Source of the DNA: Planctomycetia bacterium
GTDB lineage: Bacteria > Planctomycetota > Planctomycetia > Pirellulales > UBA1268
Length of the DNA stretch: 59,008 nucleotides
Direction: 5' to 3'
Assembly (NCBI GenBank): GCA_037129475.1
Contig: JBAXUY010000005.1
Location: 1 to 59,008, forward strand
In this document: positions 9,304-33,356 of the stretch, piece after piece
Numbering within the stretch: the stretch's first letter is position 1
Layout of the letters: every line of letters begins with the position of its first letter
The notes under the pieces: generated by a model
What the model was told of the DNA's origin: nothing
Seen by the model: the letters and a program-made list of their open reading frames with translations, nothing else
Database searches by the model: none
Program-made: the position numbers and the translations under genes

Positions 9304-9377
<74 letters not shown>

Positions 9378-9387
9378 AAAAACCGAA

Positions 9388-9461
9388 TGCGCGCGCCAAG
9401 ATTCGAACTTGGGACCTCTACCTTATCAGGGTAGCGCTCTAACCAACTGAGCTACGCGCGC
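9388..9461 (-). tRNA. tRNA-Ile (anticodon GAT)
   Basis: The reverse complement is GCGCGCGTAGCTCAGTTGGTTAGAGCGCTACCCTGATAAGGTAGAGGTCCCAAGTTCGAATCTTGGCGCGCGCA. The anticodon loop is CTGATAA and the arms are canonical. Confidence 0.95.
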
Positions 9462-14233: not shown

Positions 14234-15094
14234 ATGGTGCCATGGATGGCCCGCTCAGTGACGTGGATGGTGTGCGGCTTTGCCGTGCTCACCGCCCTGC
14301 CCGTCTTCGCCCAGGGGCCGCGGGCCTGGGCCGGATCGACCGCGGCGCCGAAGCGGGCCGACGACGGGCGCCGCGCCGACGTGCGGATCGCCACGGCGCC
14401 TGAATCGGTGACCGCGGTCGGTGTCGCCGGTACCGAGGCCGACGACACGGCCATTCCCACGGGCAACCTGCTCGCGACGATCCGCGACGGCGGCATCCTC
14501 ATGGTGCCGCTTCTGGGCTGCTCGTTCCTGCTCGCCGCGTTCGGCTTCGAGCGGCTCGTGAGCCTGCGGTGGAGCCGCGTCGTGCCGAAGCCGTTCGTCA
14601 CGCGGTTCATCGAGCAACTCCAGGCCGGCACGCTCTCCCGCGGCGAGGCGCTCGACGCCTGTGATGAGAACGGCAGCCCTGCCGCACGGGTGTTCGCCGC
14701 CGCGGTGCGCCGCTGGGGCCGGCCCGCCGTCGAGATCGAGCAGGCGGCGATCGACGCGTGCGAACGCGAGGTGAACCACCTGCGCCGCTACCGCCGCGTG
14801 TTCAACGGCATCGCCACGATCGGCCCGCTTCTCGGTCTGCTCGGCACCGTCTTCGGCCTGATCCGCTCCTTCAACGACGTCGCCAGCTCCGGCGCGATGG
14901 GGCGGCCCGACCTCCTGGCCCGCGGGTTCGGCGAGGCGCTGATCACCACGGCGATGGGGCTGCTCGTGGCGATTCCGGCGATGGTGCTCCACTGGGTGTT
15001 CACGAGCCGGGTCGACCGGCTGGCGATGCGGCTCGACGAAACCTGCCAGCAGGTGATCGACGAGATCTCGCTCGAGGCCAAGGCGGGAGCCTGA
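14234..15094 (+). CDS. exbB: MotA/TolQ/ExbB-family proton channel
   Basis: ...GIATIGPLLGLLGTVFGLIRSFNDVA...GFGEALITTAMGLLVAIPAMVLHWVF is the ExbB/TolQ signature. The start is chosen at MVPWMARSV (signal/TM). Confidence 0.85.
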   Translation: MVPWMARSVTWMVCGFAVLTALPVFAQGPRAWAGSTAAPKRADDGRRADVRIATAPESVTAVGVAGTEADDTAIPTGNLLATIRDGGILMVPLLGCSFLLAAFGFERLVSLRWSRVVPKPFVTRFIEQLQAGTLSRGEALDACDENGSPAARVFAAAVRRWGRPAVEIEQAAIDACEREVNHLRRYRRVFNGIATIGPLLGLLGTVFGLIRSFNDVASSGAMGRPDLLARGFGEALITTAMGLLVAIPAMVLHWVFTSRVDRLAMRLDETCQQVIDEISLEAKAGA

Positions 15095-17740: not shown

Positions 17741-17814
17741 GGGCGGCTAGCTCAGTTGGTTAGAGCGCTACGTTCACACCGTAGAGGTCACAGGTTCGAA
17801 TCCTGTGCCGCCCA
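17741..17814 (+). tRNA. tRNA-Val (anticodon CAC)
   Basis: GGGCGGCTAGCTCAGTTGGTTAGAGCGCTACGTTCACACCGTAGAGGTCACAGGTTCGAATCCTGTGCCGCCCA has a 7-bp acceptor stem, anticodon loop TTCACAC and the T-loop GGTTCGAATCC. Confidence 0.95.
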
Positions 17815-17901
17815 CTGGATGGTTGAGTGCTGAAAAGACGAATCAAAGCTACCTGCCCGCGGTGGGCAGTGCCTTCGGGATGCGGCTGAAAGCGCGGCAT
17901 T
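17778..17901 (+). repeat. Left copy of the ~124-nt imperfect direct repeat (tRNA-Val 3' half plus downstream element)
   Basis: It aligns with 25435-25558. The first 38 nt have 3 mismatches, followed by a 35-nt unrelated spacer of identical length, then about 52 nt at roughly 80% identity. Confidence 0.7.
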
Positions 17902-18180
17902 TCTAGCTTTCCCACTTTCGGGGTCAACGCGGCGCCCGGGGGCAGGTCAAAACTGACCGCCTCGCTGATCGTCGAGGGCCGTCTCCCGTGGGCCGCGGGG
18001 GCGCCGCGGTGTGAGATTGCCGCGAGGCTCGGCATCAGCATCGACACGCTTCGAGCCTGCGAGGCTGACCAACTGGTGGGCATGCCCCAGCGAATGCGCA
18101 GGATGAACTCGGGGCGACGGGGCGAGGTGCCCGACGAGGACGAGATCCGCCTTCGGTGCGCGATGCTGCGGCGGTCCTGA
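17890..18180 (+). pseudogene. Possible decayed HTH-protein gene next to the tRNA
   Basis: This open frame has no ATG near its 5' end and contains RCEIAARLGISIDTLRACE (HTH-like). It ends ...DEDEIRLRCAMLRRS-TGA. The same frame continues as PAERFIPLWKDGERLGHMAESAAF to 18255, so the TGA may be a mutated TGG. Confidence 0.2.
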
Positions 18181-18388
18181 CCTGCCGAGCGATTCATTCC
18201 GCTCTGGAAAGACGGCGAGCGGCTGGGACACATGGCCGAAAGCGCGGCGTTCTGAGGCGGCAGTGAGCCGCTATTTGCCGCTGCAACGGCCGCCATGCCC
18301 CAAGGTTGTCCCTGTCGTCTGGACAGTGGAAGGACTGCTCTCTGCAATAGAGGGGTATGCTCCCCAAACAACAGGTGAGAACCAGCGC

Positions 18389-19753
18389 ATGAGTGAGGGT
18401 AAGTCGAAGACGGGACTGCTGAATTGGCTCGGTAAGGCCGTCAGCGGAGTGCTTGATCCCGACAGGGAGGCTCGGCTCCAGGAGTATGTTGCCAAAGTTG
18501 ATGCCGAGATCAGTCGGCTTCGCCACGACTTTGACTTCTCGAAGACCGTTGCTCGTCTCGATATGGCTCCAAGCGACGAGCCGCTTGTTGCGGAGCGTCT
18601 GTACCGACAGTTTCTAGAACGAGCGTGGAAAGATCAGCAGATCACAGCCCGCGAGATCGAGTTGCTCGCGTGGGTCGCCGGTGCCCTGGAGTTGGAAGAC
18701 GGTGTTGTAGCGCGGCTCAACTATGAGTTCGCAGCAGCCAGGTTCCGTAGGGCGTTCGCTCAGGCGATGTCCGACGGCCGCGTGGACGAAGCAGAGGCGG
18801 CGCGGCTCCAGGCGATAGCGAGCGGCTGTGGCCAGACTGTCGGCGGCCTTGTTTCGCACTTCTTCAAGGCCGACGGTGAGCCGCTGCTTCGGAGCATATT
18901 CAGCGGCCTCGCCATGGATGGGCAAATCGACAAGGCCGAGTGGCAATCGTTCCAAGAGACTGTGGAAAGGCTGGGCGTGCCGCGCGAGTTGGTGCTGCAG
19001 GCCATTCAAACCCCAGCGCATCAACTGGTTGAACATGCGCTGGCTGATGCACGTGTCGACGGGGAAATCTCTGAGAACGAGGAGCGGGGTATCGAGTGGC
19101 TTCTTCGAAACGTCGTAGGCGACACGCCATTCGCGGCCTACGTTCGGAAGGAGATCGCCGAGGCAAAGGAAATGCAGGCCCTTCAAAAAGGCGTTCTGCA
19201 GAGTGTTGCTGCCCCACCAGGCACGGCTCTACGTGCAGGTGAGATCGTGCACTGGTTTGGGCCAGCCAAGTACGTGCGCAAACGTGAACTCGCGAGCGGC
19301 ATCAAGTTCGACGAAGTGGATGGGGAACTGGTCATCACGGACACGAGGACGATCCTCAACGCCCAGGAGAAGTCCCTCGAACTGAACCACCGAAAAGTTT
19401 TAGCGCACGTGCCGTTTGGTGATGGAATCGAGATTCGATGCGGCGGCAAGGGGAGCGGTCACTACATTTTTGCTCGCGATGGCGAACGTGCAGTCCCCAT
19501 ATGGCAGGTTGCGATTAGTCGTGCGAATCAAACGATCGTCGCATCCGATGATAAAGCAGCGCGGCGGCGAATTTCCCGCGAAGTGAGACAGCGCGTGTGG
19601 CAGCGGTATGGGGGGCGGTGCGCGGAGTGTCAGGCGGACACGTACCTCGAGTTCGACCATATAGTGCCGGTCGCCAAGGGTGGCAGTAATTCCGACACGA
19701 ACGTGCAACTACTTTGCCGGAAGTGCAACCTCGCCAAGAGCGACAACATCTGA
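18389..19753 (+). CDS. TerB-like repeat / PH-like / HNH endonuclease protein
   Basis: There are four helical repeats with the TerB-type signature (DQQITAREIELLAWVAGALEL; DGRVDEAEAARLQAIASGCG; DGQIDKAEWQSFQETVERLGV; DGEISENEERGIEWLLRNV). A bacterial-PH-like beta segment follows (GEIVHWFGPAKYVRKRE...DGELVITDTRTIL...IEIRCGG). The C-terminus is an HNH domain (CAECQADTYLEFDHIVPVAKGGSNSDTNVQLLCRKCNLAKS). The start ATG 18389 is preceded by AGGTGA; the ORF-track start at 18263 is a GTG. Confidence 0.8.
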   Translation: MSEGKSKTGLLNWLGKAVSGVLDPDREARLQEYVAKVDAEISRLRHDFDFSKTVARLDMAPSDEPLVAERLYRQFLERAWKDQQITAREIELLAWVAGALELEDGVVARLNYEFAAARFRRAFAQAMSDGRVDEAEAARLQAIASGCGQTVGGLVSHFFKADGEPLLRSIFSGLAMDGQIDKAEWQSFQETVERLGVPRELVLQAIQTPAHQLVEHALADARVDGEISENEERGIEWLLRNVVGDTPFAAYVRKEIAEAKEMQALQKGVLQSVAAPPGTALRAGEIVHWFGPAKYVRKRELASGIKFDEVDGELVITDTRTILNAQEKSLELNHRKVLAHVPFGDGIEIRCGGKGSGHYIFARDGERAVPIWQVAISRANQTIVASDDKAARRRISREVRQRVWQRYGGRCAECQADTYLEFDHIVPVAKGGSNSDTNVQLLCRKCNLAKSDNI

Positions 19754-22700
19754 TGAAGGTTGGCATGCGTTTCGAACAGATCGAATTCATCATCCGCCGT
19801 GACGCCGATGGGACGAGTTTCGGACGCGATTTCGAGTGGCTGTGTAAGTGGTACCTGGAGAACGCTCCGCTGTACCGCGGCAAGTTCCGGAAGGTCTGGC
19901 GATGGGACGAGTGGCCGGATCGCTGGGGCCGTGACTGCGGTATCGACCTCATTGCGGAGACAATTGACGGCGAACTGTGGGCCGTTCAGTGCAAGGCGGT
20001 GTCGCCAGAGCACGCCGTCACGAAGGCTGAAATCGACTCGTTCCTCTCTGAATCCAATCGAAAGCAGATCGCTTACCGGCTGCTGATCGCGACAACCGAC
20101 AACATCGGGACGAACGCCCTGCGAACCATCGAGAACCAGGCGAGGCACGCATCTGTCGTGCTGCGGGGTGACCTGGTTACGGCGGAGGTCGATTGGCCCA
20201 GCAAAATCGGCGGCACTGCTCTGAAGCCGCCACGCTGGAAGCCTCTCCCCCATCAGCGGGCAGCGATCAGCGACGTCCTGGCGGGCTTCAAAAAACACGA
20301 GCGCGGCCGCCTCATCATGGCCTGCGGCACCGGCAAGACGCTGACGGGCCTCTTGATCAGCGAAGCCGTCGGTAGCCAGCGCACGTTGTTGCTGGTTCCG
20401 TCGATCAGTCTGGCCCAGCAGAACCTGAAAGAATGGGGCCGCCACGCGAAGGAGGATTTCGATTGCCTGGTCGTGTGCTCCGACGAGACGGTGGCAAGCG
20501 ACCGCGACGATCCCGCGTTGCGATACGTCGCCGACCTGGGGATCAGGCCGACGACCAACCCGAAAGAGATAGCCGCATTCTTATCGAAGCGGCGAAGCCG
20601 ACCCGCCCTGGTGATCTCGACCTACCAATCCTGTGAGCGCGTCTCACGGGGGCAGTCGATGGCGAAGAAGTGGTTTGATCTCGCGCTCTGCGACGAGGCT
20701 CACCGGCTTGTCGGCCATTCGGACAGCCAGTTCGCCACGGTGCTGCACGACAAAAAGATCCGCGCCCGTCGCCGGTTGTTCATGACGGCCACACCCCGCT
20801 ACTTCACGCAGCGGGCAAAGGAGCGCGGCGCGGAGCAGGACATCGAATTGGTATCGATGGATGACGAGACGAAGTTCGGCCCCGAGTTCCACGTGCTCAC
20901 CTTCCACGAGGGGATCACGGCCAAGCCGGAGCCGTTGCTGACCGATTACCAGGTAGTCGTGATCGGCGTAACCAACGCAGAAGCGAAGGCGTGGGCCGCA
21001 GACGCGAAACTCATTCGCACGAAGGATGGCCTCGAAACCGATGCCAGGACGCTCGCCTCGCAGATCGGGCTCGCGAAGGCGATGAAGCAATATGATCTCA
21101 CGCGGATGATCACGTTCCATCGGTCGATCCGCAGGGCGTCGCGGTTCGTCGATGGCGAGCGTCGTGATTCACTGCCCGCCGTGATCGCGAAGATGCGGCC
21201 CGAAAACCAGCCCGCAGGCCGACTATGGGCGACACACGTTTCCGGCGAAACAGCGGCCAGCAAACGGGCCTCACTCCTGAAGGAACTTGGAGACTTGCCA
21301 AAAGGCACGTGCGGGCTGATTTCGAATTGCGCGTGCCTGGGGGAAGGCGTTGATGTTCCTGCCCTCGACGGCGTGGCCTTCATCGACCCGAAGGGTTCGA
21401 TGGTGGACATCATTCAGGCCGTCGGCCGCGTGATCCGCAAATCGCCCGACAAAAAGATCGGCACCATCGTCATCCCCGTATTCGTAGACGAGTCGGAGGA
21501 CGCCGATCACGCACTTAAAAACTCCGCTTTCGATCCCGTGTGGCAGGTGCTCAAGGCACTACGTGCCCACGACCGGCGGCTCGCCGACGAACTGGACGGA
21601 TTGCGGACTTCGCTGGGGAAGCAGGCCGGTGGCGGGAGGCGAATCAAACTTCCCTCGAATGTCGTGCTTGATGTGCCACGGCTGTTGCTCCAGGACTTCG
21701 AGCAGGCGTTCTACGTCCGGGCTGTGAAGGCAGCCACAGAGAAGCCCGCGTTAACCGTTGAACAGATTCTGCAATGGGCCGACGAATGGAAACTAAGGAC
21801 AGGAGACTGGCCGAATGCCAAGTCTGGGGCCATACCTGACACGCAAGAGACGTGGGCAGGCATAGCCCACGCGCTGAATCGTGGGCACCGTGGACTAAAC
21901 GCGAGTCGCTGTTCCCTGCCGCAGTTCCTGCACGACTTCCGAGGTGTTCGCAACAGAGCGGGCCTGGGGATGCTTGCCGAAGAGCAGATCCTCGAATGGG
22001 CAGATCGCTACTTTGAGCATCACAGTTCGTGGCCCACCCACTCGTCTGGGGATATACCCGAAACATATGACACATGGGCCGGTGTTAGTGTCGCCCTCCG
22101 AAACGGCGCTCGCGGGCTACCTCGGCAAATAACGCTGGCAAACCTTCTCTGGGAGAAGCGGGGAGTTCCTAACAGGGCAAACCGTCCGCGGTTGTCTATC
22201 GAACAGATTTTGAGGTGGAGCGACGATCACAAACGGCGGACGGGAGATTGGCCCGATCAAACCTCCGGGCAGGTTTATGGCACAACCGAGACCTGGGGAG
22301 GCATTCAAGTCGCGCTCAACGGTGGAAAACGTGGGCTCCGCGGCAAATCGTCAATTCGGCTCCTACTGCATGAGCACCGCGGAGTCCCTCACTTAAGGCG
22401 CCAGCCGCGACTGTCTGTGCCTCTGATTCTGAGGTGGGCTGATGACTACCATCGCATGACTGGGCGGTGGCCGAAGAACAAAAAAACTTCTGACAAAATC
22501 TCAGGAACAGATGACAGTTGGGCCAGCATCGACGCTGCTCTCCGCGCAGGAAGACGCGGCCTGCGCAAGTCGTCGCTCGCGGACTTGCTCGAGAAGCGTC
22601 GTGGCGTCAGAAACCATCTAAAGGCTCGGCCACTTACGTTAAAACAGATTCTGAGATGGGCAGATCGGCATAGAAGAAAGACCGGTGAATGGCCCATCGC

Positions 22701-23496
22701 GGAATCCGGCCAGATCATAGGGGCCAGAGGCGAGAAATGGTCGAGCGTGCAGGCGGCTCTTTCGCAGGGCACGCGCGACCTTCCCGGAGGTGACTCGCTG
22801 TCTCGCTTACTCGCGCGTGAACGTGGCGTCCGCAACCGACTCGACACCCCGAAACTAACGGTTCGCAGGATTCTCGCGTGGGCTGATGCGCACCACCAGA
22901 ATCATGGCGACTGGCCAACTGTCGGTGATCGCCGTGATCCTGCTGCAGGAGAGAATTGGAACGCCATTAATGCGGCTCTTGAGCGCGGATCCCGCGGTCT
23001 ACCGGGGGGCAGTTCCTTGGCGACTTTGCTGGCTGAAAAGCGAGGGGTGCGTCGCGGCCGTCATGCCCAGAGGCTCACGGTAAACATGATCGCCAAATGG
23101 GCGAAAGCGCATCACAGGCGCACGGGCAAATGGCCGACGTTGAGTTCCGGTTTAGTCCACGGCACAAACGAGCGATGGAATAATTTGGATCAGTTGTTGG
23201 CCAAGGGGCTCCGCGGTTTACCTGGCGGTCAAAGACTGGCCAACGTTCTTGCGGATCACTGCGGAGTTCGCAACCACCTGAACATTTCCGACCTGTCGGT
23301 GAAGCAATTATTGGTGTGGGCCGATGAGCACCATGCCCGGAATGGAACCTTTCCGACCAAGGACTCGGGCCCCGTTTTCGGAACCGAGGAGAACTGGTCG
23401 AAAATTGATACCTCGTTAAGGGCTGGGAATCGCGGACTTCCCGGCGGCTCATCGCTCGCCAAGTTGCTGGATCGGCATCGACGAGGCAGGGATTAA
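19753..23496 (+). CDS. Mrr-type PD-(D/E)xK nuclease + SF2 DEAH helicase + 8x ~73-aa C-terminal repeat protein (1247 aa)
   Basis: The N-terminus has GRDCGIDLIAETIDGELWAVQCKA (Mrr_cat-like D...QxK). Helicase motifs are I MACGTGKTLTG, II LCDEAHRL, III FMTATPR, V/VI GEGVDVPALDGVAFIDP...QAVGRVIRK. Eight tandem repeats follow. The start ATG 19753 overlaps the upstream stop (TGATG). Confidence 0.85.
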   Translation: MKVGMRFEQIEFIIRRDADGTSFGRDFEWLCKWYLENAPLYRGKFRKVWRWDEWPDRWGRDCGIDLIAETIDGELWAVQCKAVSPEHAVTKAEIDSFLSESNRKQIAYRLLIATTDNIGTNALRTIENQARHASVVLRGDLVTAEVDWPSKIGGTALKPPRWKPLPHQRAAISDVLAGFKKHERGRLIMACGTGKTLTGLLISEAVGSQRTLLLVPSISLAQQNLKEWGRHAKEDFDCLVVCSDETVASDRDDPALRYVADLGIRPTTNPKEIAAFLSKRRSRPALVISTYQSCERVSRGQSMAKKWFDLALCDEAHRLVGHSDSQFATVLHDKKIRARRRLFMTATPRYFTQRAKERGAEQDIELVSMDDETKFGPEFHVLTFHEGITAKPEPLLTDYQVVVIGVTNAEAKAWAADAKLIRTKDGLETDARTLASQIGLAKAMKQYDLTRMITFHRSIRRASRFVDGERRDSLPAVIAKMRPENQPAGRLWATHVSGETAASKRASLLKELGDLPKGTCGLISNCACLGEGVDVPALDGVAFIDPKGSMVDIIQAVGRVIRKSPDKKIGTIVIPVFVDESEDADHALKNSAFDPVWQVLKALRAHDRRLADELDGLRTSLGKQAGGGRRIKLPSNVVLDVPRLLLQDFEQAFYVRAVKAATEKPALTVEQILQWADEWKLRTGDWPNAKSGAIPDTQETWAGIAHALNRGHRGLNASRCSLPQFLHDFRGVRNRAGLGMLAEEQILEWADRYFEHHSSWPTHSSGDIPETYDTWAGVSVALRNGARGLPRQITLANLLWEKRGVPNRANRPRLSIEQILRWSDDHKRRTGDWPDQTSGQVYGTTETWGGIQVALNGGKRGLRGKSSIRLLLHEHRGVPHLRRQPRLSVPLILRWADDYHRMTGRWPKNKKTSDKISGTDDSWASIDAALRAGRRGLRKSSLADLLEKRRGVRNHLKARPLTLKQILRWADRHRRKTGEWPIAESGQIIGARGEKWSSVQAALSQGTRDLPGGDSLSRLLARERGVRNRLDTPKLTVRRILAWADAHHQNHGDWPTVGDRRDPAAGENWNAINAALERGSRGLPGGSSLATLLAEKRGVRRGRHAQRLTVNMIAKWAKAHHRRTGKWPTLSSGLVHGTNERWNNLDQLLAKGLRGLPGGQRLANVLADHCGVRNHLNISDLSVKQLLVWADEHHARNGTFPTKDSGPVFGTEENWSKIDTSLRAGNRGLPGGSSLAKLLDRHRRGRD
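21751..23493 (+). repeat. Eight in-frame tandem coding repeats (period 219-222 nt, ~73 aa)
   Basis: Repeat starts are at 21751, 21973, 22192, 22411, 22633, 22855, 23074 and 23293. The approximate consensus is L[ST]VxQIL.WAD.H..RTG.WP...SG.I.G..E.W..I..AL..G.RGLPGGSSLA.LL...RGVRN. The copies are divergent at the DNA level. Confidence 0.85.
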
Positions 23497-23502
23497 CTGG
23501 TC

Positions 23503-24189
23503 ATGCGACTGGTCGGCTGGAATGCCAACTACAACAACCATCCGCGCACCTTCGAAGAAAACGTCGCCCTCCTGGAGCCGTTCAAGGCCGACGTGCTGGT
23601 GATCTGTGAGACCGCGCCGCCGCAGCCTGGTGGTCGGGCGTTCTTCGTGGGCGGTTCGCCTGGGCTGGCCGTTGTGGCCCCTGATGGCATCGAGATCCAG
23701 CCGCACCCGATGAACGACGGTGCGCCGCCGCTGTTTGCCGGATTTCGTGTTGCTGGGCCTCTGGCGTTCGATCTGCTGGCGACCTGGCCCGTCAGCCGAA
23801 AGGGTATGCCCTCCTACCACGAGGTGCTGATGGCGTCCCTGGGGCGATACGCCGACTTCTGGGCGGCTGGTCGCGCGGTGATGCTGGGTGACTTCAATTC
23901 GAGCACCCGGGTCGGCAGCCAGAAGCGGTCACATCCGGTGTTCGTCCAGGCCGCTCTGGATCGCGGGCTCGTGAGCGCGTACCACGAGCAGACAGGCGAG
24001 AGCCACGGCGAGGAAACCGTGTCGACGTACCTCCACGGCAATGGTGCGGAGTTTCACGTGGACTACGGCTTCGTGTCGCAGCCGCTCGTCGAGTCAGTCC
24101 GCTGCCGGATTCCCGACGAGCCGCGATGGTTCGAGATCGGCGATCACCGGCCGATCGTCTTGGATATCGACGAGGCCGTGGGAGAGTGA
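23503..24189 (+). CDS. Endonuclease/exonuclease/phosphatase (EEP) family protein
   Basis: MRLVGWNANY..., ...ADVLVICET..., ...VMLGDFNSS..., ...EIGDHRPIVLDI follow the EEP (ExoIII/DNase I-like) motif order. It starts 6 nt after the helicase stop. Confidence 0.7.
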   Translation: MRLVGWNANYNNHPRTFEENVALLEPFKADVLVICETAPPQPGGRAFFVGGSPGLAVVAPDGIEIQPHPMNDGAPPLFAGFRVAGPLAFDLLATWPVSRKGMPSYHEVLMASLGRYADFWAAGRAVMLGDFNSSTRVGSQKRSHPVFVQAALDRGLVSAYHEQTGESHGEETVSTYLHGNGAEFHVDYGFVSQPLVESVRCRIPDEPRWFEIGDHRPIVLDIDEAVGE

Positions 24190-24203
24190 CTTCTCTCGCC
24201 GCG

Positions 24204-24286
24204 GATTCGTCCCTCGATTTGCCCGATTCGTCCCGCGCGTTTCGAGTGCGCGCCCGATTCGTCCCTAGCCGTGCCGGATTCGTCAC
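24204..24286 (+). promoter_or_regulatory. Four phased direct repeats of GATTCGTC(C/A)C
   Basis: Copies lie at 24204-24213, 24225-24234, 24256-24265 and 24277-24286, with start-to-start spacing of 21, 31 and 21 nt. They sit between the EEP stop and the island PEP-CTERM gene, and a GC palindrome (cgcgcg...gcgcgc) lies between copies 2 and 3. Confidence 0.5.
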
Positions 24287-24416
24287 ATTTTCGGCACCGA
24301 CGGGCTGGGTGATCGTATGCGGCTGGTAGTCTGCAGGGGGCTTCGTGCCGCCGCGCGTCACGCGTGGCGGACGACGCCCCCGTGCGCCAGCAATCCAGAG
24401 TTTTCCGCCCCATCCT

Positions 24417-25073
24417 ATGAAAGAGACAGCAATGCGAAGTAGACGTTTGCCGGAAATGTTATCCGCCGTGCGATGCATCGTCGTCATGGCGATCGTGGTC
24501 GCTTCCGTCCTAAGCGCCTGCGCGGCAATCGCCGCATCGACGACAAACTTTTTACTCGAGGCAGCCGACGGCGGCGCCAAGTCGCGACTGTCATGGACAT
24601 TCGGAGATGGCTGGCTTTCGCCCTCGGGCGTCGAGACAAAAACCATGACCTACCTTGGCACATTTGGCGCGGGGGCGATCGATCCCACCTTCGTCTCGGG
24701 GACGTTCGCCGTCAGCGGTGCCGGTTCGTACAACAACATCACCACGGGATCCTCCTTTCAGATAACTAACCTCGGGTTCACGCAGATGAACACGTCTGAT
24801 CTGTTCATCAGCTTGATGCAGACACAAAGCGTTCTTGTCTCCGGCTCAGGCCAGTTCGTCTCATACACGCCAGGGACTGATTCGTTTGTGGTCGACATCC
24901 CGTTTTCGAAGTTCGTTCCGGGTATCTATGCGATCAACAACGGGGTGTCGACACCGCCGACCCCGCAGACGTTGACGATCACCGCCGTGCCCGAGCCATG
25001 GACGTGGGTGATGGCTACGGGCGGGTTCGCCTATGCAGCATTTGAAATGTTCCGGCGCCGCAGGCGGGCCTGA
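24417..25073 (+). CDS. Secreted PEP-CTERM-anchored protein (island cargo)
   Basis: It has a signal/TM region (VRCIVVMAIVVASVLSACAAIAAS), and its C-terminus is AVPEPWTWVMATGGFAYAAFEMFRRRRRA. An alternative start is MRSRRL at 24432. Confidence 0.75.
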   Translation: MKETAMRSRRLPEMLSAVRCIVVMAIVVASVLSACAAIAASTTNFLLEAADGGAKSRLSWTFGDGWLSPSGVETKTMTYLGTFGAGAIDPTFVSGTFAVSGAGSYNNITTGSSFQITNLGFTQMNTSDLFISLMQTQSVLVSGSGQFVSYTPGTDSFVVDIPFSKFVPGIYAINNGVSTPPTPQTLTITAVPEPWTWVMATGGFAYAAFEMFRRRRRA

Positions 25074-25102
25074 CGCCGAGTGCCTGATGTGATTCACACG
25101 AT

Positions 25103-25134
25103 GAGGGGAGCGGGCCACGCGGTTCGCTCCCCTC
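25103..25134 (+). terminator. Hairpin after the island PEP-CTERM gene
   Basis: gaggggagcg-ggccacgcggtt-cgctcccctc is a perfect 10-bp stem, followed by gctcgtttgt (weak T-tract), 30 nt after the stop. Confidence 0.4.
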
Positions 25135-25434
25135 GCTCGTTTGTGGGCTGACCGCGAGCCGGTGCCGCCGTGGGAATGGTGGGCGGGCGGGGCGCCAGCC
25201 GGCGGGTAGGCGAATCCTGTCTACATCACTCGACCCCCGCCCTGCCCCGCAGTCGCAGCGGCTCACGCTGGGCCAGAACATCCCCGCTTCCCCGCTTCTG
25301 AATGGTGGAGTGTGTTTTTTCAGTGGAAAGCGGGGAAAGTGTTGCTTCTGTTGTCGGCCTTCGAAAGGGCTGATATTCTCGTTGCAAACCGTCATTTCGA
25401 CGGCACGGAAGTGCGTGTCTGAAGGTTGGTTCCC

Positions 25435-25558
25435 ACCGTAGAGGCCGCAGGTTCGAATCCTGTGCTGCCCACTCGGTCGAAAGACCTTGTTTTGCAGGAG
25501 AGACGCGACCTGCCCTCGCTGGGCGGCGCCCTCGGGATGCGACTGAACGCGGGGCATT
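25435..25558 (+). repeat. Right copy of the direct repeat (decayed tRNA-Val 3' fragment plus downstream element)
   Basis: accgtagaggccgcaggttcgaatcctgtgctgcccac is followed by a 35-nt spacer and a homologous 52 nt. The upstream ..gaaggttggtt|ccc| looks like a D-arm remnant joined directly to the variable/T-arm region, i.e. the anticodon arm is missing. Confidence 0.7.
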
Positions 25559-26982
25559 CGCGACTCACGCGAGCACAGGCCATCGCCGCCGAGGATCTGC
25601 ATGAGGCGCAGACCGGGATCGGGCGCTTGTTTTCCCGCGGCATGCGGCCGGTGATCCGCTGGATCAAGGGGGATGGGCTCGACGATGCGGTGACGCGGTC
25701 GGCGATCGGGCAGGCAACGCGGCTCTTTGGCGGCCGCGTCGACTATTGCCTCTGTACGCAGGGCATCGATGGGGCCCGAGTGCGCTCCATTCTCCAATGG
25801 GCTGCCCAGCCGGTGGAATGGTGGCCGGTATCGGCAAACGACAACCAACACCTCGCCGCCTTTCTCCAGCGGGCCGGCTGTCCGCCCGAGAAATTTGGCT
25901 ACTGGTGGAAATGGTTTCCGGAGCGGGTGCGGCCGGACGGCCCGGAGTGGATTCTCGACGGCGATATGGTGGTTACGGCTGCTCCGCCCTGGTTCGCTGC
26001 CTGGGCCACTGGCCGCGATGGCGTGCGGGTCGCCCAAGACGACAAGGAAGGTCCGCACATCTACGGCGCCTACGCACGCCTCGTCGATCCATCGCTGAAA
26101 CTCTATTCGGGCCTCGTGTCGCTGCCGCCGCGGTGTCGTTACATGCCGCAGATGTCGCAGGTGCTGAAGCGGTGGCCGCTTGCGTTTGGCCACGACGGCC
26201 GGCGCGACATGTGCGAGCAGGGCGTGGTGGCGGCGACGTTTCAGGCGTTGTGGGCAACGCCGATTCCGCTGCACCAGTTTCCGTTCGGCCGGGCGTTCCA
26301 GCCGCATTTGGATTTCGGTCTCGCCGGTGATCAGGGGCATGTGTGGGGATATCACTTCGGCAACGCCTTCCGTCGTGCCAATCCCCACTATGAACGGCTC
26401 ACGGCCGAGGGCGTGGTGTTTTCCAAGGGGTGGGGCGACGTGATCGAGCGGCATCGCTGGCTGGGCGGCACGGGCGCGTGGGGCGTTCCGGGCTGGACGA
26501 TGCCCGATGGCATGGCCCGCACCATCCTCTCGCGAGCGATGGCGTTCACTGGCCGAGCCGTGCTGGAACTGGGCACCTCGCGGGGCCGCCTGACTGCGAT
26601 GCTGGCCGAGCAAGGCTGCCGGGTGACGACGGTCGATCATGTCGATCGTGGCGCCGCAACGAACGTGTCCGGCTTGCCGGTGGAGGTCGTCGTCGCAGAC
26701 GTGGTCGAGTATTTGCAGCGCACGCCGCGATCGTTCGATCTGATCATCTGCGACGTGCACGGCAATTCGCCGGCGGAATGGGCCCGCTTCGCGGAGCCGC
26801 TGACGATGCGGCTCGCTCCCGGCGGTATGCTTCTGGCCAGCAATGCGACGCTGCACGAGGTTCCGGGATGGCACGAGGAGACGGGCGTGCAGGCATTCGC
26901 CGCTCAACTGCCTCCCGACTGGGCGGTCGAGCTGGATCGTTCCGAGGTGCCGGGGCTGGCGATCGTAAGAAAGCCGCTGTGA
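25537..26982 (+). CDS. Fusion protein: N-terminal GT-A-like domain (DxD) + C-terminal class-I SAM-dependent methyltransferase
   Basis: WILDGDMVV is a DxD-type motif in a domain of about 300 aa that I cannot otherwise place. The C-terminal AVLELGTSRGRLTAMLAEQGCRVTTVDHVD...FDLIICDVHG is a Rossmann SAM-methyltransferase motif I plus post-I. The start is uncertain: 25537 (MRLNAGH, conserved in the repeat) or 25642 (MRPVIRW). Confidence 0.6.
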   Translation: MRLNAGHSRLTRAQAIAAEDLHEAQTGIGRLFSRGMRPVIRWIKGDGLDDAVTRSAIGQATRLFGGRVDYCLCTQGIDGARVRSILQWAAQPVEWWPVSANDNQHLAAFLQRAGCPPEKFGYWWKWFPERVRPDGPEWILDGDMVVTAAPPWFAAWATGRDGVRVAQDDKEGPHIYGAYARLVDPSLKLYSGLVSLPPRCRYMPQMSQVLKRWPLAFGHDGRRDMCEQGVVAATFQALWATPIPLHQFPFGRAFQPHLDFGLAGDQGHVWGYHFGNAFRRANPHYERLTAEGVVFSKGWGDVIERHRWLGGTGAWGVPGWTMPDGMARTILSRAMAFTGRAVLELGTSRGRLTAMLAEQGCRVTTVDHVDRGAATNVSGLPVEVVVADVVEYLQRTPRSFDLIICDVHGNSPAEWARFAEPLTMRLAPGGMLLASNATLHEVPGWHEETGVQAFAAQLPPDWAVELDRSEVPGLAIVRKPL

Positions 26983-27986
26983 CAACGATTCCTTTTTGTG
27001 ATCTCGCCCGCGCTCACGCGCCGATCCGGGCCGACATCGAGCAGGCCGTGCGAGGCTGCATCGACCGGGCGTCGTTTCTGCGCGGACCCGAGACGCAGGC
27101 CTTCGAAGAAGAGTGGGCGGCCTTCTGCGGCCAGAAGTATGGCGTGGCGTGCAACAGCGGCACCGACGCGCTCACGATCGCGGCCGCCGCCCTCGGCCTG
27201 GAGCAGGCGCGGATTTCTTCCACGACACTTCCGTTGACGGCCATCGGTCTGCATCGAGCGGGCACACGCGTGATCCTCGCCGACGTGGACGAAGACGGGC
27301 ACATGCAGCGGCCGTGTGAGGATACGGTGCCTGTGTTGTTCTATGGCCGGCTTCCTCCCTCGGGCCATCCCGTGGCACGGCTCTACGATGCCGCCCATGC
27401 CCATGGGTGGCAGCCCAGCCAGGGCACGGCAGCGGCGTGGAGTTTCTATCCCACCAAGACTCTGGGCGGGCTGGGCGACGGCGGGGCCGTGACGACCGAC
27501 GACGAGAGCCTCGCCCGCACGATGCGTGACCTGTGCGGCCGCGACGACGTGCTGCGCGACCGGCGTCAGCTGACGTCGCGGATGGACGAGATCCAGGCGG
27601 CCGTGCTTCGCGTCAAGCTCCGGCATCTTCCCGAGTGGTTGCAGATGCGCCGCGAGATCGGTGAGCGATACGGCGCGTGGCTCGGGCCTGCCGGGCTCGC
27701 ACTGCCCGGGCCGTCGCTTCACCACCTCTACTGCATTCGCGTGCCCGATCGTGATGGGTTGCGGTCGCACCTCACCGAGCGGGGCATCGGTTCAAAGGTG
27801 CACTGGGAGATGCCTCTCCATCGGCAGGATGGCCCCTGGCAGGCCGAGGCCGCGCTTCCCAATGCCGACCGCTGGTGCGATACGATCGTGAGCCTACCGT
27901 GCTTTCCCGGCCTGGAGTCGGGTGAGGTTGATCGGGTCTGCGAGGCGGTGTTGGAACATCAAGCCGCTCTCCACAAGGCGGTGTGA
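26979..27986 (+). CDS. DegT/DnrJ/EryC1/StrS-family PLP-dependent sugar aminotransferase
   Basis: VTTIPFCDLARAHAPIRADIEQAV..., FEEEWAAFCGQKYGVACNSGTDALTIA and SFYPTKTLGGLGDGGAVTTDD (PLP lysine) fit the family. The GTG start overlaps the upstream stop (GTGA). The 518-aa ORF-track entry has a spurious N-terminal extension. Confidence 0.85.
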   Translation: MTTIPFCDLARAHAPIRADIEQAVRGCIDRASFLRGPETQAFEEEWAAFCGQKYGVACNSGTDALTIAAAALGLEQARISSTTLPLTAIGLHRAGTRVILADVDEDGHMQRPCEDTVPVLFYGRLPPSGHPVARLYDAAHAHGWQPSQGTAAAWSFYPTKTLGGLGDGGAVTTDDESLARTMRDLCGRDDVLRDRRQLTSRMDEIQAAVLRVKLRHLPEWLQMRREIGERYGAWLGPAGLALPGPSLHHLYCIRVPDRDGLRSHLTERGIGSKVHWEMPLHRQDGPWQAEAALPNADRWCDTIVSLPCFPGLESGEVDRVCEAVLEHQAALHKAV

Positions 27987-28149
27987 ACTCCCCCGCGACC
28001 GTGCGGATTCTGCCGGCTGGACGGGCCTTGGCCGCGCCGGTTCTTCCGGTCATGCCGTTGCGAAGGGCCTTCGCGATGCGACGCTTTCGCAAGGGACGAT
28101 GCTTCTCCTCGGGGACGGCAACACTCTCGCCACGCACACGGGGGGCGGT

Positions 28150-29001
28150 ATGCGGATTTCTCGGTTCATCATCGTGGCCATGCTCTCGATCGCTTGCACG
28201 CGGGCGATTGCCGACGATCTGGGCGAACCGATCGACCTGTCGAGTTTTTCGAGCCTCGATTCCGTGCTCGCCGACGCGGGTCAGGCAGTCGGCGACGACG
28301 CCTTCGCGTTCACGCCGGTGGCCTTCGACGGCGAACCCTCCCGGATTCGCGGCTACGTCTCCGCCATCGCCGGCGGGTCGTTCGGGACGATCAACGCCGG
28401 CGGCACAAGCTTTTTTGGCAGTAATGAGATCCGGACCGTCGGGGCGGCCAGCGAGGCGATGTTCACCGGCGGCGGTGCGATCGGCATGGCCCTCGACCGG
28501 CCGTCCGGATTGCTGCGCATGGAGGTGGAAGGGCGGGCCCGGGGGCCGCTGAACGGGCAGACCGAACTCCTCGTCGTCAATGCCGATCCGCAGTTCAGCT
28601 TTCCGATCAACACCACGGTATCCGGTGGCTGGTCGGCGATGACCAATTTCTGGCGCGACTGGTTCGTGTCCGACCGCTTCGGCGTGTACGGTGGTGGCGG
28701 GTTTGGAATTGGTGGGTATCAGTACTCATCCCAAATAAACATCCTTGGAGCCGGGTTTGAGGCGGCGAGCACCGTGAACACGTTTGCCTGGCAGGTGGGC
28801 ACGGGGTTCACCTACCGTCTCAGCGATCGGGTGACCTTCGACACGGGCTACCGATTCTTCGCGATGACCCCCGGTTCGTCGCCGCTCATCCTGGCGACAC
28901 CGTTGTACTCCCAAGTCATCGGCACCACGTCGTCGGCCTTCAGCGCGAGCGAGCTGCTGCTCTCCGTTCGCATCTACGAGCCGTTCCGTAGTTGGCACTA
29001 A
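28150..29001 (+). CDS. Putative outer-membrane beta-barrel protein
   Basis: It has a signal peptide (MRISRFIIVAMLSIACTRAIADD), Gly-rich alternating strands (FGVYGGGGFGIGGY, WQVGTGFTYRLSDRVTFDTGYRFF) and an aromatic C-terminal region. Confidence 0.6.
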   Translation: MRISRFIIVAMLSIACTRAIADDLGEPIDLSSFSSLDSVLADAGQAVGDDAFAFTPVAFDGEPSRIRGYVSAIAGGSFGTINAGGTSFFGSNEIRTVGAASEAMFTGGGAIGMALDRPSGLLRMEVEGRARGPLNGQTELLVVNADPQFSFPINTTVSGGWSAMTNFWRDWFVSDRFGVYGGGGFGIGGYQYSSQINILGAGFEAASTVNTFAWQVGTGFTYRLSDRVTFDTGYRFFAMTPGSSPLILATPLYSQVIGTTSSAFSASELLLSVRIYEPFRSWH

Positions 29002-29232
29002 GCTGAGCAGTCGGCGGATTGAAACGGGGCAGGCATGGTGCTTTGCCGAGACCCCGGGGCTGAGAACTTGGCGAAGGAAGCCCGACTTTTTCTGTGGTCG
29101 TGACCGTCGGGAAGGTCGTCCCGGCCGATGGGCCGAATCCAGACGCGTCGGCCGCAGCGAGCGCGAACGGGGCGATGGACGACCCCGTCTGCGTTCCCGG
29201 CTCGGCGAACGAGGCCCACGGGAACGTCGAGC

Positions 29233-30549
29233 ATGCCCTGTGTCGGGAAGGTAGTCCTCGGGTGCGCCGCGGTCCTGCTGGCCACACTGATGCCCGCGGT
29301 GAGCGTCGTCGCGCAGGAAGCGCCGTTCGTCGGCGGGCCCAGCCAGGCCGGTGCGTTCGAAGCGTTCGACCCGGTGCTCACCGACGAGGTCAGGACGGGG
29401 ATCATTCCCTCCGGGCAGGACTGGTTCCTGTTCGGCGAGCGCGAGCGCGGCGGCGTCTACGGCTGGCTCGACGGCGGGTTCGTGGGCAACTTCGGCGTGC
29501 CGGCGAGCAAGTTCAACGGCCCCTACAACGCAGTCGACCGGGCCAACGAAGCGATGATGAACCAGGTGTATGTCATCGCCGAACGCACGCTGCCCACCGA
29601 CGGCTCGAACGGGATCGGGGCGCGGACGGACCTGCTCTATGGCGAGGATTTCCCGCTCGCCATGTCGTTGGGGTGGGAGACGAATCCGGGGCCGAGCGAC
29701 TGGAACAGCGGCGAATACTACGGCCTCGCCATCCCGCAGCTCTACGCCGAGGTCGGCAACCAGGATCTCTCGCTCAAGCTCGGCCACTTCTACACGATCG
29801 TGGGCTACGAGGGCGTGCCGGCGGTCGGCAACTTCTTCTACTTCAAGAGCTACAGCTATCAGTTCGCCGGCCCCTTCACCCACTGGGGCGGCCTCGTGAA
29901 CTGGAAGGCCTCGGACAATGTGGAGGTGGATGCCGGGATCGTGAACGGGTGGAACGGCCTCGCGTCGCCTTACAGCAAGGCGAACTTCCTCGGCCGCATT
30001 CGCGTCAGGAACGACGACAACTCGTTCGCGACATCGTTCGCGATCATCACCGGCGACGAGGGCAACGACTTCTCGCCCCTCTTTCAGCCGGCGCCTCCGC
30101 TCACGTCCGCCAATCGCACCCGCTACAGCCTGATCTTCGAGTCGCGCCCGGCCGACAACTGGGAATACCTGTTCCACCAGTGGCTCGGCACGCAGGCCCA
30201 GGGCCTCGCCGACGGTGGCACGGCGCTCTGGGTGGGCATCGACCAATACCTCTACTACCGCGTGAACGATGCGTGGGCCTGGGGCGCACGCTTCGAGTGG
30301 TTTCAGGACACCGACGGCACCCGTGTCGGCCTCAATCGACCGAGCAATCCCAACCACGTGCCGCTGCCGGGCAACTTCTACTCGCTCACGCTCGGCCCGA
30401 ACTGGACGCCCACCGGCAATTTCCTGATGCGGCCGGCGTTCCGCTGGGACTTTTTCGGCGGCCCCTCCGGCGGGCCGCGGGCGCCCTACAACGACGGCGT
30501 CAGCAACCAGCAGACGATGCTCGGTTTCGACATGATCCAGAAGTTCTGA
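29233..30549 (+). CDS. Putative outer-membrane porin-like beta-barrel protein
   Basis: It has a signal peptide (MPCVGKVVLGCAAVLLATLMPAVSVVAQE), a Gly/Tyr/Phe/Asn-rich alternating pattern, and ends ...TMLGFDMIQKF with a terminal Phe. Confidence 0.6.
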   Translation: MPCVGKVVLGCAAVLLATLMPAVSVVAQEAPFVGGPSQAGAFEAFDPVLTDEVRTGIIPSGQDWFLFGERERGGVYGWLDGGFVGNFGVPASKFNGPYNAVDRANEAMMNQVYVIAERTLPTDGSNGIGARTDLLYGEDFPLAMSLGWETNPGPSDWNSGEYYGLAIPQLYAEVGNQDLSLKLGHFYTIVGYEGVPAVGNFFYFKSYSYQFAGPFTHWGGLVNWKASDNVEVDAGIVNGWNGLASPYSKANFLGRIRVRNDDNSFATSFAIITGDEGNDFSPLFQPAPPLTSANRTRYSLIFESRPADNWEYLFHQWLGTQAQGLADGGTALWVGIDQYLYYRVNDAWAWGARFEWFQDTDGTRVGLNRPSNPNHVPLPGNFYSLTLGPNWTPTGNFLMRPAFRWDFFGGPSGGPRAPYNDGVSNQQTMLGFDMIQKF

Positions 30550-30663
30550 CGTCGCACTTGCCGGCCATAGTGCCCGCCATCGTGCTCACCAGCGCCATGG
30601 CGTCGCTGGCGCTGCCACGAGTCCGAGGCTGACTTCGATCGTGCGCCGTGCAGGCAGCGGCGC

Positions 30664-32232: not shown

Positions 32233-32550
32233 GATGCTCCAGGTCGAGGAATGTTCAGCTGTGGATAGCGTGTCGTATGGCCGGTCCGGCCGTGTCTGCA
32301 ATGCGAAACCGGCCAGAATGCCAGCGTGGGTTCGTCGCCCGCAAGCGTGGGCCTCCGATCGGCGGGAGGCCCGGATTTCGGCCGGAAGGTGCCGCTGTTG
32401 TTCAGGCGGTTCCGAAATGCTAGAAAATCGCAGGTTCGACTGACTTTCGTCCGCACCCACTCCGTCGGGAACTGCGGTTCGTGCACCTGGCGATGGTCGT
32501 GAGTCGATTGGTTCGTGAGCCAGTTCCCGAGTCCCTGAGGTTTTGTTTTT

Positions 32551-32922
32551 ATGGCCCGGAAGATTTACGTGGGGAACCTCCCCTGGTCCACCACGTCCTC
32601 CGATCTGGAGGCGATGTTTTCTCCGCACGGCGCCGTGCGGAGTGCCGAGGTGATCTCCGATCGTGAGACCGGACGTTCCCGCGGATTTGGTTTCGTGGAG
32701 ATGGAGACCGACGAAGGTCTGCAGGCTGCGATCAACGCCCTCAACGGGCATGAGATCAACGGCCGGCCCCTGACGGTCAATGAGGCCCGTGAGCGCACGC
32801 CCCGTCCGGGCGGAGGCGGCGGTCGCTCCGGCGGCTACGGTGGTGGTGGCGGTGGCGGCGGTCGTGGTGGCTACGGTGGCGGCGGCGGTGGCGGCGGCTA
32901 CCGTGGCGGCGACCGCTACTAG
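32551..32922 (+). CDS. RRM-type RNA-binding protein with an RGG/Gly-rich tail
   Basis: KIYVGNLPW (RNP2) and RGFGFVEM (RNP1) are followed by a GGGGRSGGYGGGGGGGGRGGYGGGGGGGGYRGGDRY tail. Confidence 0.9.
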   Translation: MARKIYVGNLPWSTTSSDLEAMFSPHGAVRSAEVISDRETGRSRGFGFVEMETDEGLQAAINALNGHEINGRPLTVNEARERTPRPGGGGGRSGGYGGGGGGGGRGGYGGGGGGGGYRGGDRY

Positions 32923-33077
32923 GACAGCGATCCATCGCAGGTTCCCCTTTCGACATGCCATCGCAGGGGTCGGGTTGGTCACGCTCCCGACCCCTGCGAT
33001 CCATGTGTCGAGCAATGCAACGCGGTTTTGATTCGTTCGCACAACTCTTTCACCAGACCACGGACTGACACACTTTC

Positions 33078-33356
33078 ATGCCCCCTGCCAATCCCAAGTT
33101 TGCCAAGTTCGCCAAGAAGAAGGCCAAGCCGCGCACGAAGGTGAAGCGGAAGGATCCGATCTTCATCGACGGCGCCCGTCCCCGTCCGATGTACGTCGAC
33201 TACAAGGACCTCGAACTCCTCGGCAAGCTCATCAACCGGCAGGGAAAGATCCTCGGCCGGCGCAAGAGCGGTTGCACGGCGGCGAGCCAGCACGCCGTGA
33301 CCAGCGCCATCAAGCGGGCGCGGTTCATGGCCCTCCTGCCCTACGTCGGCGAGTGA
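33078..33356 (+). CDS. rpsR: 30S ribosomal protein S18
   Basis: ...[51 protein letters not shown] is the S18 core. Confidence 0.9.

Follow-up and report, generated by a model that had tools for sequence, protein, structure and literature searches.

An integrase-less island at tRNA-Val of a planctomycete, probably left by tandem accretion and decay of phage-satellite-like elements

Among elements that tyrosine integrases insert into tRNA genes, an attachment (att) identity block that starts at the anticodon loop and extends as far as the gene's 3' end is reportedly typical. Tandem accretion giving rise to cis-mobilizable elements (CIMEs) has been described for the ICESt1/ICESt3-related elements of Streptococcus thermophilus (Pavlovic et al., 2004; Bellanger et al., 2011), and the scheme reviewed in PMC5704250 runs from integration through decay to the integration of another element. 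In Dehalococcoides, islands lie in tandem at ssrA, each bounded by a repeated copy of the 3' end of ssrA; the integration module stands next to attL and is absent in many islands, and there is extra conservation around each repeat (McMurdie et al., 2011; PMC3146451). Here, a comparable locus is described in a 59,008-nt stretch of contig JBAXUY010000005.1 from a Planctomycetia bacterium of the Pirellulales; this whole stretch is referred to as the window. A 7.7-kb segment that follows its tRNA-Val gene had been picked out in a first-pass annotation, made from the letters alone, as a tRNA island without an integrase, bounded by an unusually long (~124-nt) imperfect direct repeat. The segment, called island A below, is most probably the integrase-less remnant of a mobile element with its att sites still flanking it, and the locus as a whole very likely records tandem accretion followed by decay, in the manner of a CIME, at tRNA-Val.

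The "~124-nt repeat" is in all likelihood a composite of two att cores, each with the arm of a different but related element. The target gene and the two cores are listed here; the comparators, numbered with L, are metagenome contigs or metagenome-assembled genomes (MAGs).

17741-17815, forward strand: tRNA-Val(CAC), intact, the integration target (called by ARAGORN; Rfam tRNA, 72.3 bits; conserved synteny).
17772-17816, forward strand: attL core, first copy of the direct repeat, from the anticodon loop to the tRNA 3' end (41/45 to the second copy; identical to L001 9929-9973).
25429-25473, forward strand: attR core of island A, second copy of the direct repeat, with the tRNA-Val 3' half only (41/45 to the first copy; no tRNA call).

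As first annotated, the 3'-terminal 38 nt of the tRNA occur again at 25435-25472 with 3 mismatches, a recurrence that gave 0 matches in 100 shuffles of the window. The repeat can be extended to 45 nt starting at the anticodon loop, and one of the 4 differing positions falls in the anticodon-loop segment. After each core comes a spacer of 34-35 nt, which the annotation had called unrelated between the copies and which is indeed at chance-level identity (11/34). A second block follows, estimated earlier at ~52 nt and ~80% identity and measured here as 43/51 identical positions (~84%) between 17851-17901 and 25508-25558; the best of 200,000 random 51-mer pairs drawn from the window reached 31/51. 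Spacer and block keep one and the same offset of 7657 nt. The two ATG codons within the block also behave as had been described, the left one (17880) being stopped by TAG after 8 codons and the right one (25537) opening a 481-aa open reading frame (ORF). Direct copies in register might suggest a segmental duplication in situ, or a long target-site duplication of ~130 nt that diverged later. Such an origin is extremely improbable, however, for a 34-nt spacer matching at 11/34 lies between flanking blocks that are 84-91% identical, and each copy has closer kin elsewhere: the right one in the core and arm of L069 (85.6% over 25429-25553), the left one in L043 (81% over 17741-17897). Two cores carrying the arms of two related elements explain instead the conserved spacing, the diverged spacer and the ~84% alike block from hairpin to ATG.

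The nature of these arms was revealed by a survey of the locus. Species-representative genomes were scanned with the 532-aa protein encoded upstream of the tRNA, which yielded 55 loci from Pirellulales/Planctomycetia MAGs, mostly from lakes, and the 125 nt after every tRNA-Val or tRNA-Val fragment were compared. The arms recognised in the window are the following.

17817-17946, forward strand: P' arm of island A, the probable integrase-upstream region of its parent (covariance model, 73 bits; homology to L069 228-288).
17817-17850, 17853-17869 and 17872-17879, forward strand: parts of this arm, namely the spacer, hairpin 1 and a small CC-UUCG-GG hairpin.
25474-25558, forward strand: arm B, the probable P' arm of an older integrase-less element (spacer, hairpin 1 at 25510-25526, small hairpin, ATG at 25537).
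25270-25428, forward strand: P arm, the probable right end of island A (three AAGCGGGG/CCCCGCTT 8-mers at 25282-25335; aligned with the P arms upstream of the L006 and L069 attR cores).

The same architecture, consisting of a ~35-nt spacer, a CCTGCC-loop-GGCAGG hairpin and a small CCC-tetraloop-GGG hairpin, was found after tRNA-Val or a fragment of it in L004, L012, L015, L022, L025, L026, L027, L043, L045 and L056. A covariance model of 11 arms gave 13 matches in 11 loci plus the window at 49-86 bits, not counting a weak, partial one where L010 ends, always beside tRNA-Val or a fragment, with 67 bits for window 25470-25572; elsewhere in 635 kb no arm was detected by the model. Directly 3' of the arm stands a PF00589 tyrosine integrase gene in L012, L043, L056 and L069, and a truncated integrase homolog, found by tblastn, in L015; the integrase genes after the arm encode 420-460 aa where the contig continues. 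In L025, the arm follows the intact tRNA and is succeeded by frameshifted integrase remains, and the second repeat copy is followed by a non-arm, terminator-like flank such as is seen in the arm-less loci L011, L019, L037 and L047. Because the arm lies next to integrase genes and the second copy of L025 leads into a non-arm flank, the arm appears to be the integrase-proximal (P') end of the integrating elements and not host flank.

The opposite view, that the second block is a functional element of the host, such as a 3' trailer or terminator of tRNA-Val kept by selection, could draw on the conservation of the structure: hairpin 1 is 91% paired across the 11 arms, with compensatory changes at 3/6 pairs, and the arm has outlived the loss of the integrase at four places, namely both copies in the window, L022 and L027. 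Nevertheless, a host element of this kind is quite unlikely. The arm is lacking at short, apparently unoccupied sites, e.g., L039, L041 and L051, and throughout the clade with terminator-like native flanks named above (L011, L019, L037, L047). No T-run follows the hairpin, and the right copy in the window stands after a tRNA fragment that is not a gene, so that a role in tRNA expression cannot maintain the arm there. An arm serving as an element-supplied trailer of the rebuilt tRNA is compatible with an origin from the element as well. Rfam recognised no known RNA family in either arm, at the gathering threshold or at E<=1.

Between the hairpins and the integrase ATG, two direct AAAGCGGGG and two inverted CCCCGCTT units, with a GCGGGGAATTCCCCGC palindrome among them, are present in the arms of L069, L043 and L022. 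In the island A arm, degenerate AAAGCGGGG-type repeats come after the hairpins and are followed by homology to the region just before the integrase ATG. The 8-mer AAGCGGGG/CCCCGCTT is also clustered in the L069 arm at ~205-265, in two direct and two inverted copies, and 3 of its 6 copies in the window gather in the P arm at 25282-25335. Judged by their arrangement, the AAAGCGGGG/AAGCGGGG/CCCCGCTT arm repeats are candidate arm-type integrase sites. The 12 nt directly before the right core are identical in L006, and the sequence 5' of this core aligns in general with the right-end (P) arms of related elements. A tRNA that had lost its anticodon arm had been suspected at this place; this candidate was abandoned in view of the P-arm alignment, of a chance-level match to the tRNA 5' half (10/31) and of the absence of any tRNA call in the region of the right copy by ARAGORN or by Rfam, even at E<=1.

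On the right-hand side, arm B runs into an unrelated gene.

25537-26982, forward strand: methyltransferase gene, with start codon and first codons in arm B (Pfam Methyltransf_25; 93% aa to L001).
Up to 27986: DegT-family aminotransferase gene, after the methyltransferase gene (Pfam DegT).

The right copy most likely represents the arm of an older element of the L069/L043 subfamily whose integrase is gone, as its sequence suggests. Besides its similarity to L069, arm B together with its core is 82% identical to what comes after the intact tRNA-Val of L022 and L027, two loci likewise without a following integrase. For the first-pass annotation, the duplicated segment included the first codons of the flanking gene, and two origins had been offered, acquisition with donor flanking DNA or decay of a tandem island array. 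In the former case, imprecise excision in a previous host would have taken along a piece of donor chromosome, and the left second block would be this captured piece with the first codons of the methyltransferase gene. The exact register of the blocks, the shared ATG and the agreement of a further 19/22 bases are in keeping with such a capture. It is very unlikely all the same, since five loci without a methyltransferase gene in the vicinity have the block upstream of an integrase gene, and the homology of the left copy to the family arms continues for 45 nt past the block, to the integrase start codon (window ~17946 = L069 ~288). Moreover, the left copy after 'GCATT' has no similarity to the methyltransferase gene (15/35), and L022 and L043 share ATGCG.CCGAAAGCGGGG with no methyltransferase gene after it. 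The block is thus better read as the element's own arm than as gene sequence, and of the two origins it is the decay of a tandem array that is supported.

The methyltransferase ORF has no plausible start besides the ATG within arm B. This shared ATG was considered as a conserved gene start and rejected, its frame relative to the integrase gene being different in two relatives: it is in frame in L069 and out of frame in L043. With its context ATGCG.C.GAAAGCGGGG (ATGCG.CCGAAAGCGGGG), it would rather be a feature of one arm subfamily that the methyltransferase gene came to use.

Some further observations concern the methyltransferase itself. A ~320-aa N-terminal region is without Pfam match, and PADLOC matches the protein to mad2 (8e-13) by the methyltransferase domain only. 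Family members at 54-93% identity occur in MAGs labelled Planctomycetia, Pseudomonadota and Verrucomicrobia, and in some of them the methyltransferase is fused to a DegT aminotransferase (fusions of 818-835 aa).

Island A stands out from its surroundings. Its GC is 0.611 vs 0.691 and 0.687 in the core flanks, and the tetranucleotide distance from the core peaks over it at 0.32 vs a background of ~0.09-0.13, which bears out the higher AT content noticed before. The reported lack of an integrase ORF is also borne out: no recombinase domain exceeds the curated Pfam threshold in the four large ORFs of the island, where the sole integrase-related match is a sub-threshold Phage_int_M in the helicase repeat region, and tblastn with three integrases of the element family found no integrase remains in the whole window (E<=0.01). 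An empty site in a related genome, proposed as a check at the first reading, was found in L001, an 18-kb metagenome contig retrieved through the closest methyltransferase homolog and collinear with the window at 82-91% nt identity. In this contig, tRNA-Val is joined straight to the sequence that follows window 25473, and both repeat copies have their counterpart in L001 9929-9973. This places the insertion at 17817-25472 or, equally well, at any 7657-nt frame within the repeat. Among the traits of a tRNA-targeting island, the direct repeat of the tRNA 3' part with an intact tRNA, the unoccupied site and the deviant composition are all present; an integrase of its own is missing from the window and present in the homologous L069, as well as in L012, L043 and L056. 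These data support a horizontally acquired, integrase-less island at tRNA-Val, bounded by tRNA-derived direct repeats. Island A could be remobilised only if a related integrase acted in trans.

In the assembled contigs of the source run, island and flanks are covered to equal depth. Among the assembler contigs of the sequencing runs, none showed an excision or empty-site joint for this strain, and contigs of other strains from the same sample carry different sequences after the tRNA. One 4x contig (run X1) joins 24533 to 17617 with 8 unmatched letters between; it may represent another arrangement in a co-occurring strain or an assembly chimera.

What island A has lost can be seen from a complete relative. 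Homologs of its Mrr-helicase gene are numerous in Planctomycetota, and one at 84% aa identity (81% nt) occurs on contigs L067-L070. Of these, L069 (14.7 kb) carries a complete 14.4-kb element between cores at 97-141 and 14478-14522. The order is core, arm, integrase, excisionase-like gene (DUF1580/phrog_1840), terminase small subunit (phrog_83), several genes of unknown function, a 105-aa gene, Mrr-helicase, a 229-aa endonuclease/exonuclease/phosphatase (EEP)-like gene, a leucine-rich-repeat protein, a DUF5131 protein and the second core. Elements of this kind integrate into tRNA-Val and rebuild the gene from a 3' half that they carry themselves, and they keep the arm beside the integrase gene. 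In the window, the alignment to L069 is interrupted as follows.

17947-17971, no strand: deletion junction (~6.4 kb of L069, 288-6687, missing, with int, xis, small terminase and others).
17972-18312, forward strand: probable 5'-truncated remnant of the 105-aa gene located before the Mrr-helicase gene in the intact element (71% nt to L069 6687-7020).

Window 17889-17946 corresponds to L069 228-288, up to the integrase start codon, and window 17972-18312 to L069 6687-7020, within the 105-aa gene; between 17946 and 17972, no alignment to L069 was obtained. The remnant has a helix-turn-helix-like motif in frame and no start codon before its last ~34 codons. Further on, the L069 Mrr-helicase gene is 81% identical in nt to window 19792-23483 and the EEP-like gene 84.5% to window 23482-24178. 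The integration module is deleted here, and island A appears to be a deletion derivative that lost ~6.4 kb comprising int, xis, the small terminase gene and neighbouring genes. It differs from L069 also by an HNH gene and by its right-hand cargo; its right-hand part is common to the L006 island (88% nt). Within its 14.4 kb, L069 has int, an excisionase gene and a terminase small subunit gene along with five genes without PHROGs match. Its gene content includes no capsid, tail or large-terminase genes, and no relaxase or type IV secretion system genes were seen in the parent-type element. From this gene content, the parent of island A would have been a phage satellite.

The relatives further show how such units stack. 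The synteny of the 532-aa protein gene, TatA and tRNA-Val is retained in ~45 of the 55 surveyed loci, and the content downstream of the tRNA differs among loci. A second arm, which belongs to the L004/L025-type subfamily, comes after the right-hand core of the integrase-bearing element in L067, L068 and L069. L068 9959-15211 is a three-core tandem array, in which an integrase-bearing element, a second arm and a 5.2-kb integrase-less segment with an SNase-family gene precede a third core at 15167 and a non-arm flank. Second copies of the tRNA 3' half occur also in L006 (5.2-kb island), where a repeat copy lies directly 5' of the BBP2 gene, and in L025 (2.9-kb island). As the arrays of L067, L068 and L069 indicate, "core + arm ... 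core + arm" is the normal signature of stacking at the tRNA-Val site. It can be said with considerable confidence that tRNA-Val(CAC) is an integration hot spot in a freshwater Pirellulales lineage, used by satellite-like elements of ~14 kb.

The accreted region seems to reach well beyond island A.

32551-33356, forward strand: ancestral right flank, with an RNA recognition motif (RRM) RNA-binding protein gene at 32551-32922 and rpsR at 33078-33356 (RRM_1, 4e-25; Ribosomal_S18, 8e-20).
27922-32256: further variable modules, namely a beta-barrel outer membrane protein (OMP) gene to 29001, a BBP2 porin gene at 29128-30549 and a sulfatase gene at 30664-32256 on the reverse strand (Pfam).

In L039, L041 and L051, a homolog of window ~32392-32920, which holds the RRM gene, starts ~0.2-0.4 kb after tRNA-Val, and the distance from the tRNA to the RRM/rpsR flank is 0.4-7 kb in other relatives vs 14.6 kb in the window. 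Many relatives have none of the OMP, BBP2 and sulfatase modules between their tRNA-Val and the core flank. Given the short distances in relatives, all of 17817-~32400 would be accreted DNA: first the island, then the methyltransferase/DegT/OMP genes, then the BBP2 porin and sulfatase genes.

Several side observations on these loci may be recorded. Besides its frameshifted integrase remains, the 2.9-kb island of L025 (3436-6308) contains part of a caudovirus prohead protease gene and an SNase-family nuclease gene; it also encodes a GLTTLSDEAAKALAQHKG-repeat protein, and a similar repeat protein is encoded in the L006 island. Close to the right-hand ends of islands in three different loci (window 25103-25184, L006 5076-5156, L068 14902-14985), a sequence of ~80 nt is shared at 79-90% identity; the L006 island contains it a second time, and it may be a small repeat element. 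Pairs of tRNA-Ala and tRNA-Ile genes are usual in rRNA spacers. In the window, adjacent tRNA-Ala(TGC) and tRNA-Ile(GAT) genes lie at 9304-9461 on the reverse strand, and the same pair is found at the same place in many related loci; no rRNA gene occurs anywhere in the window.

From these data, a history in three steps can be proposed. The attP of such an element carries a tRNA 3' half (45 nt, anticodon loop to 3' end) followed by the P' arm and the integrase gene. Integration rebuilds the tRNA; the left end then shows tRNA, arm and int, and the right end keeps a second tRNA 3' half. In the first step, an older element would have integrated and lost its integrase, its arm becoming fused to the methyltransferase gene, which would start at the ATG of the arm. 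In the second, an element with the Mrr-nuclease/helicase and EEP-like genes would have entered the rebuilt tRNA-Val, shifting the earlier tRNA 3' half and the old arm 7.66 kb rightward. In the third, this second element (17817-25472) would have been shortened by ~6.4 kb, a deletion that begins at the integrase start codon and ends within the gene next upstream of the helicase. Both the order in which the two units arrived and the position of the crossover are what we infer from the present layout.

Alternatively, the whole composite may have formed elsewhere and entered this genome en bloc, by homologous recombination via the flanks or by tandem excision and integration. Composite tandems are known to transfer as units (PMC5704250), the flanks are only 82-91% identical to L001 and so imply a long history between genomes, and the right core differs from the L001 tRNA at 4 positions. 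An import of this sort is nonetheless unlikely. L001 shares the junction of arm B and the methyltransferase gene and is without island A; the most economical view is that island A came to a site where arm B was present before it.

Several points weigh against the stepwise accretion set out above. In L001, the closest relative with the empty site, arm B is reduced to its first 16 nt and about its last 14 nt. The methyltransferase ortholog of L001 differs at the N-terminus (MRAESTPVAAMSDEKNAGHSRL vs MRLNAGHSRL in the window), the two sharing an AACGC.GG.CATTCGCGACTC stretch. Neither an ungapped window scan (<=17 mismatches) nor a T-arm seed search detected a third tRNA-Val fragment closing the older element, and in the alignment of the OMP/BBP2 intergenic region the window is without the repeat copy that L006 has there. 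As no third core is present in the window, it is the arm from which the extent and the site-specific origin of the older element are deduced. The left arm of the window is only 74% identical to the L069 arm, with an unlike spacer (11/34), which indicates that the direct parent of island A had another arm variant than L069. Finally, misassembly at repeats could have affected any single comparator. With these points taken into account, accretion of two related elements at one tRNA gene and their subsequent decay is still the preferred explanation.

Island A carries four genes on the forward strand.

18389-19753, forward strand (ORF open from 18263): HNH endonuclease gene with a helical-repeat N-terminal region (Pfam HNH, 3.8e-11; PADLOC PDC-S48, 1e-10).
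19753-23496, forward strand: gene for a Mrr-type nuclease and superfamily 2 (SF2) helicase of 1247 aa (Mrr_cat_2, 4.6e-34; ResIII, 1.6e-19; Helicase_C).
23503-24189, forward strand: gene for a weakly EEP-like protein of 228 aa, conserved next to the Mrr-helicase gene (84% aa to the product of L069 10961-11650).
24345-25073, forward strand: gene for a PEP-CTERM-type secreted protein, with a probable start near 24432 (weak NCBIfam PEP-CTERM match; C-terminal VPEP...RRRRR).

The HNH gene is extra cargo, situated between the 105-aa remnant and the helicase gene and absent from L067-L070. At its position, L069 has only ~146 nt and L071 has a GIY-YIG/NUMOD gene. A metagenome scan with the HNH protein yielded stand-alone homologs (53-70% aa) only, with no other island genes, tRNA-Val fragment or integrase beside them. 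Its product may be a nuclease of the freestanding, homing type or else an exchangeable partner for the helicase.

The N-terminal 640 aa of the Mrr-helicase match the nuclease/motor half of Type IIG/ISP enzymes, residues 37-624 being matched by PADLOC to REase_MTase_IIG (3e-147), the N-terminal half of a Type IIG restriction endonuclease-methyltransferase. Nuclease and motor are thus joined in one chain, as in Type ISP/IIG enzymes, and the C-terminal methyltransferase and target-recognition domains of those enzymes are missing; neither Pfam nor PADLOC detected a methyltransferase domain in the 1247 aa. The C-terminal 584 residues (21742-23493) are made up of eight tandem helical repeats of 73-74 aa with the motif ..QIL.WAD.H...TG.WP...SG......W..I..AL..G.RGLPGGSSLA.LL...RGVRN. 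The lengths of homologs rise in ~75-aa steps from 947 to 1682 aa, which suggests that the number of repeats is variable among them. An AlphaFold model of two repeat units (pLDDT 83) shows three helices per unit, and a search of PDB folds with this model gave no match better than E = 0.7.

The EEP assignment of the 228-aa protein comes from its L069 counterpart, with a weak Exo_endo_phos match (0.004). The PEP-CTERM gene is absent from L069 and has 87% aa and 88% nt identity to L006 7023-8019. Exact-match look-ups of two window proteins returned no record. In a metatranscriptome run of the same study, contigs are identical to 18428-18625, part of the HNH gene, and to 24478-25086, covering most of the PEP-CTERM gene, so that at least these two island genes appear to be transcribed in situ.

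A wider picture may be drawn tentatively, and is more doubtful than credible as a whole. The parents may belong to a previously undescribed, tRNA-Val-specific phage-satellite-like family of Planctomycetota. Their arm may combine the 3' trailer of the tRNA with the control and arm-site region of the integrase, and such double duty, if true, would explain why the arm outlives the integrase gene. The main cargo may be a methyltransferase-less relative of Type ISP enzymes, with the array of 74-aa three-helix repeats (4 to ~14 units among homologs) as a modular DNA-recognition domain.

Compared with the systems mentioned at the outset, the locus is CIME-like. Island A has no integration or transfer genes, retains attL and attR and derives by deletion from an integrase-bearing relative; it probably shared its tRNA-type target in tandem with a related element, and the three-step scheme matches this layout. 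Unlike the conjugative or mobilizable parents of CIMEs, the parent here looks phage-satellite-like (int, xis, small terminase); in addition, both stacked units are without integrase and the host is a planctomycete. The ssrA islands of Dehalococcoides likewise use a single small-RNA gene as hot spot, lie in tandem and often lack the integration module. They differ in having a serine recombinase and a 20-bp ssrA repeat, whereas a tyrosine integrase and a 45-nt tRNA half are found here, and in the tRNA-Val elements it is the downstream side that forms the conserved arm. From classical tRNA elements with tyrosine integrases, which have the same repeat span and the integrase gene beside the rebuilt tRNA, nothing essential differs, the window being a decayed example. 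Judged by gene content, L069 resembles satellites of the phage-inducible chromosomal island type that carry defence genes, with its 14.4 kb, int, excisionase-like gene, small terminase and nuclease/helicase cargo; the island in the window has lost the int, xis and terminase genes. The tRNA-Val island is a further example in a new host lineage and not a new kind of mobile element.

By this analysis, an odd att repeat of ~124 nt is resolved into a standard process, repeated integration at one tRNA with loss of the integrase module, and the variable region at the locus amounts to 14.6 kb, not 7.7 kb. A practical rule follows: the conserved sequence after each copy of the tRNA fragment marks the integrase-side end of an element, which helps to delimit decayed islands in MAGs, often broken at such sites. 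For the freshwater Pirellulales, the locus points to a tRNA-Val-specific, satellite-like family that carries defence-type nuclease/helicase genes among them.

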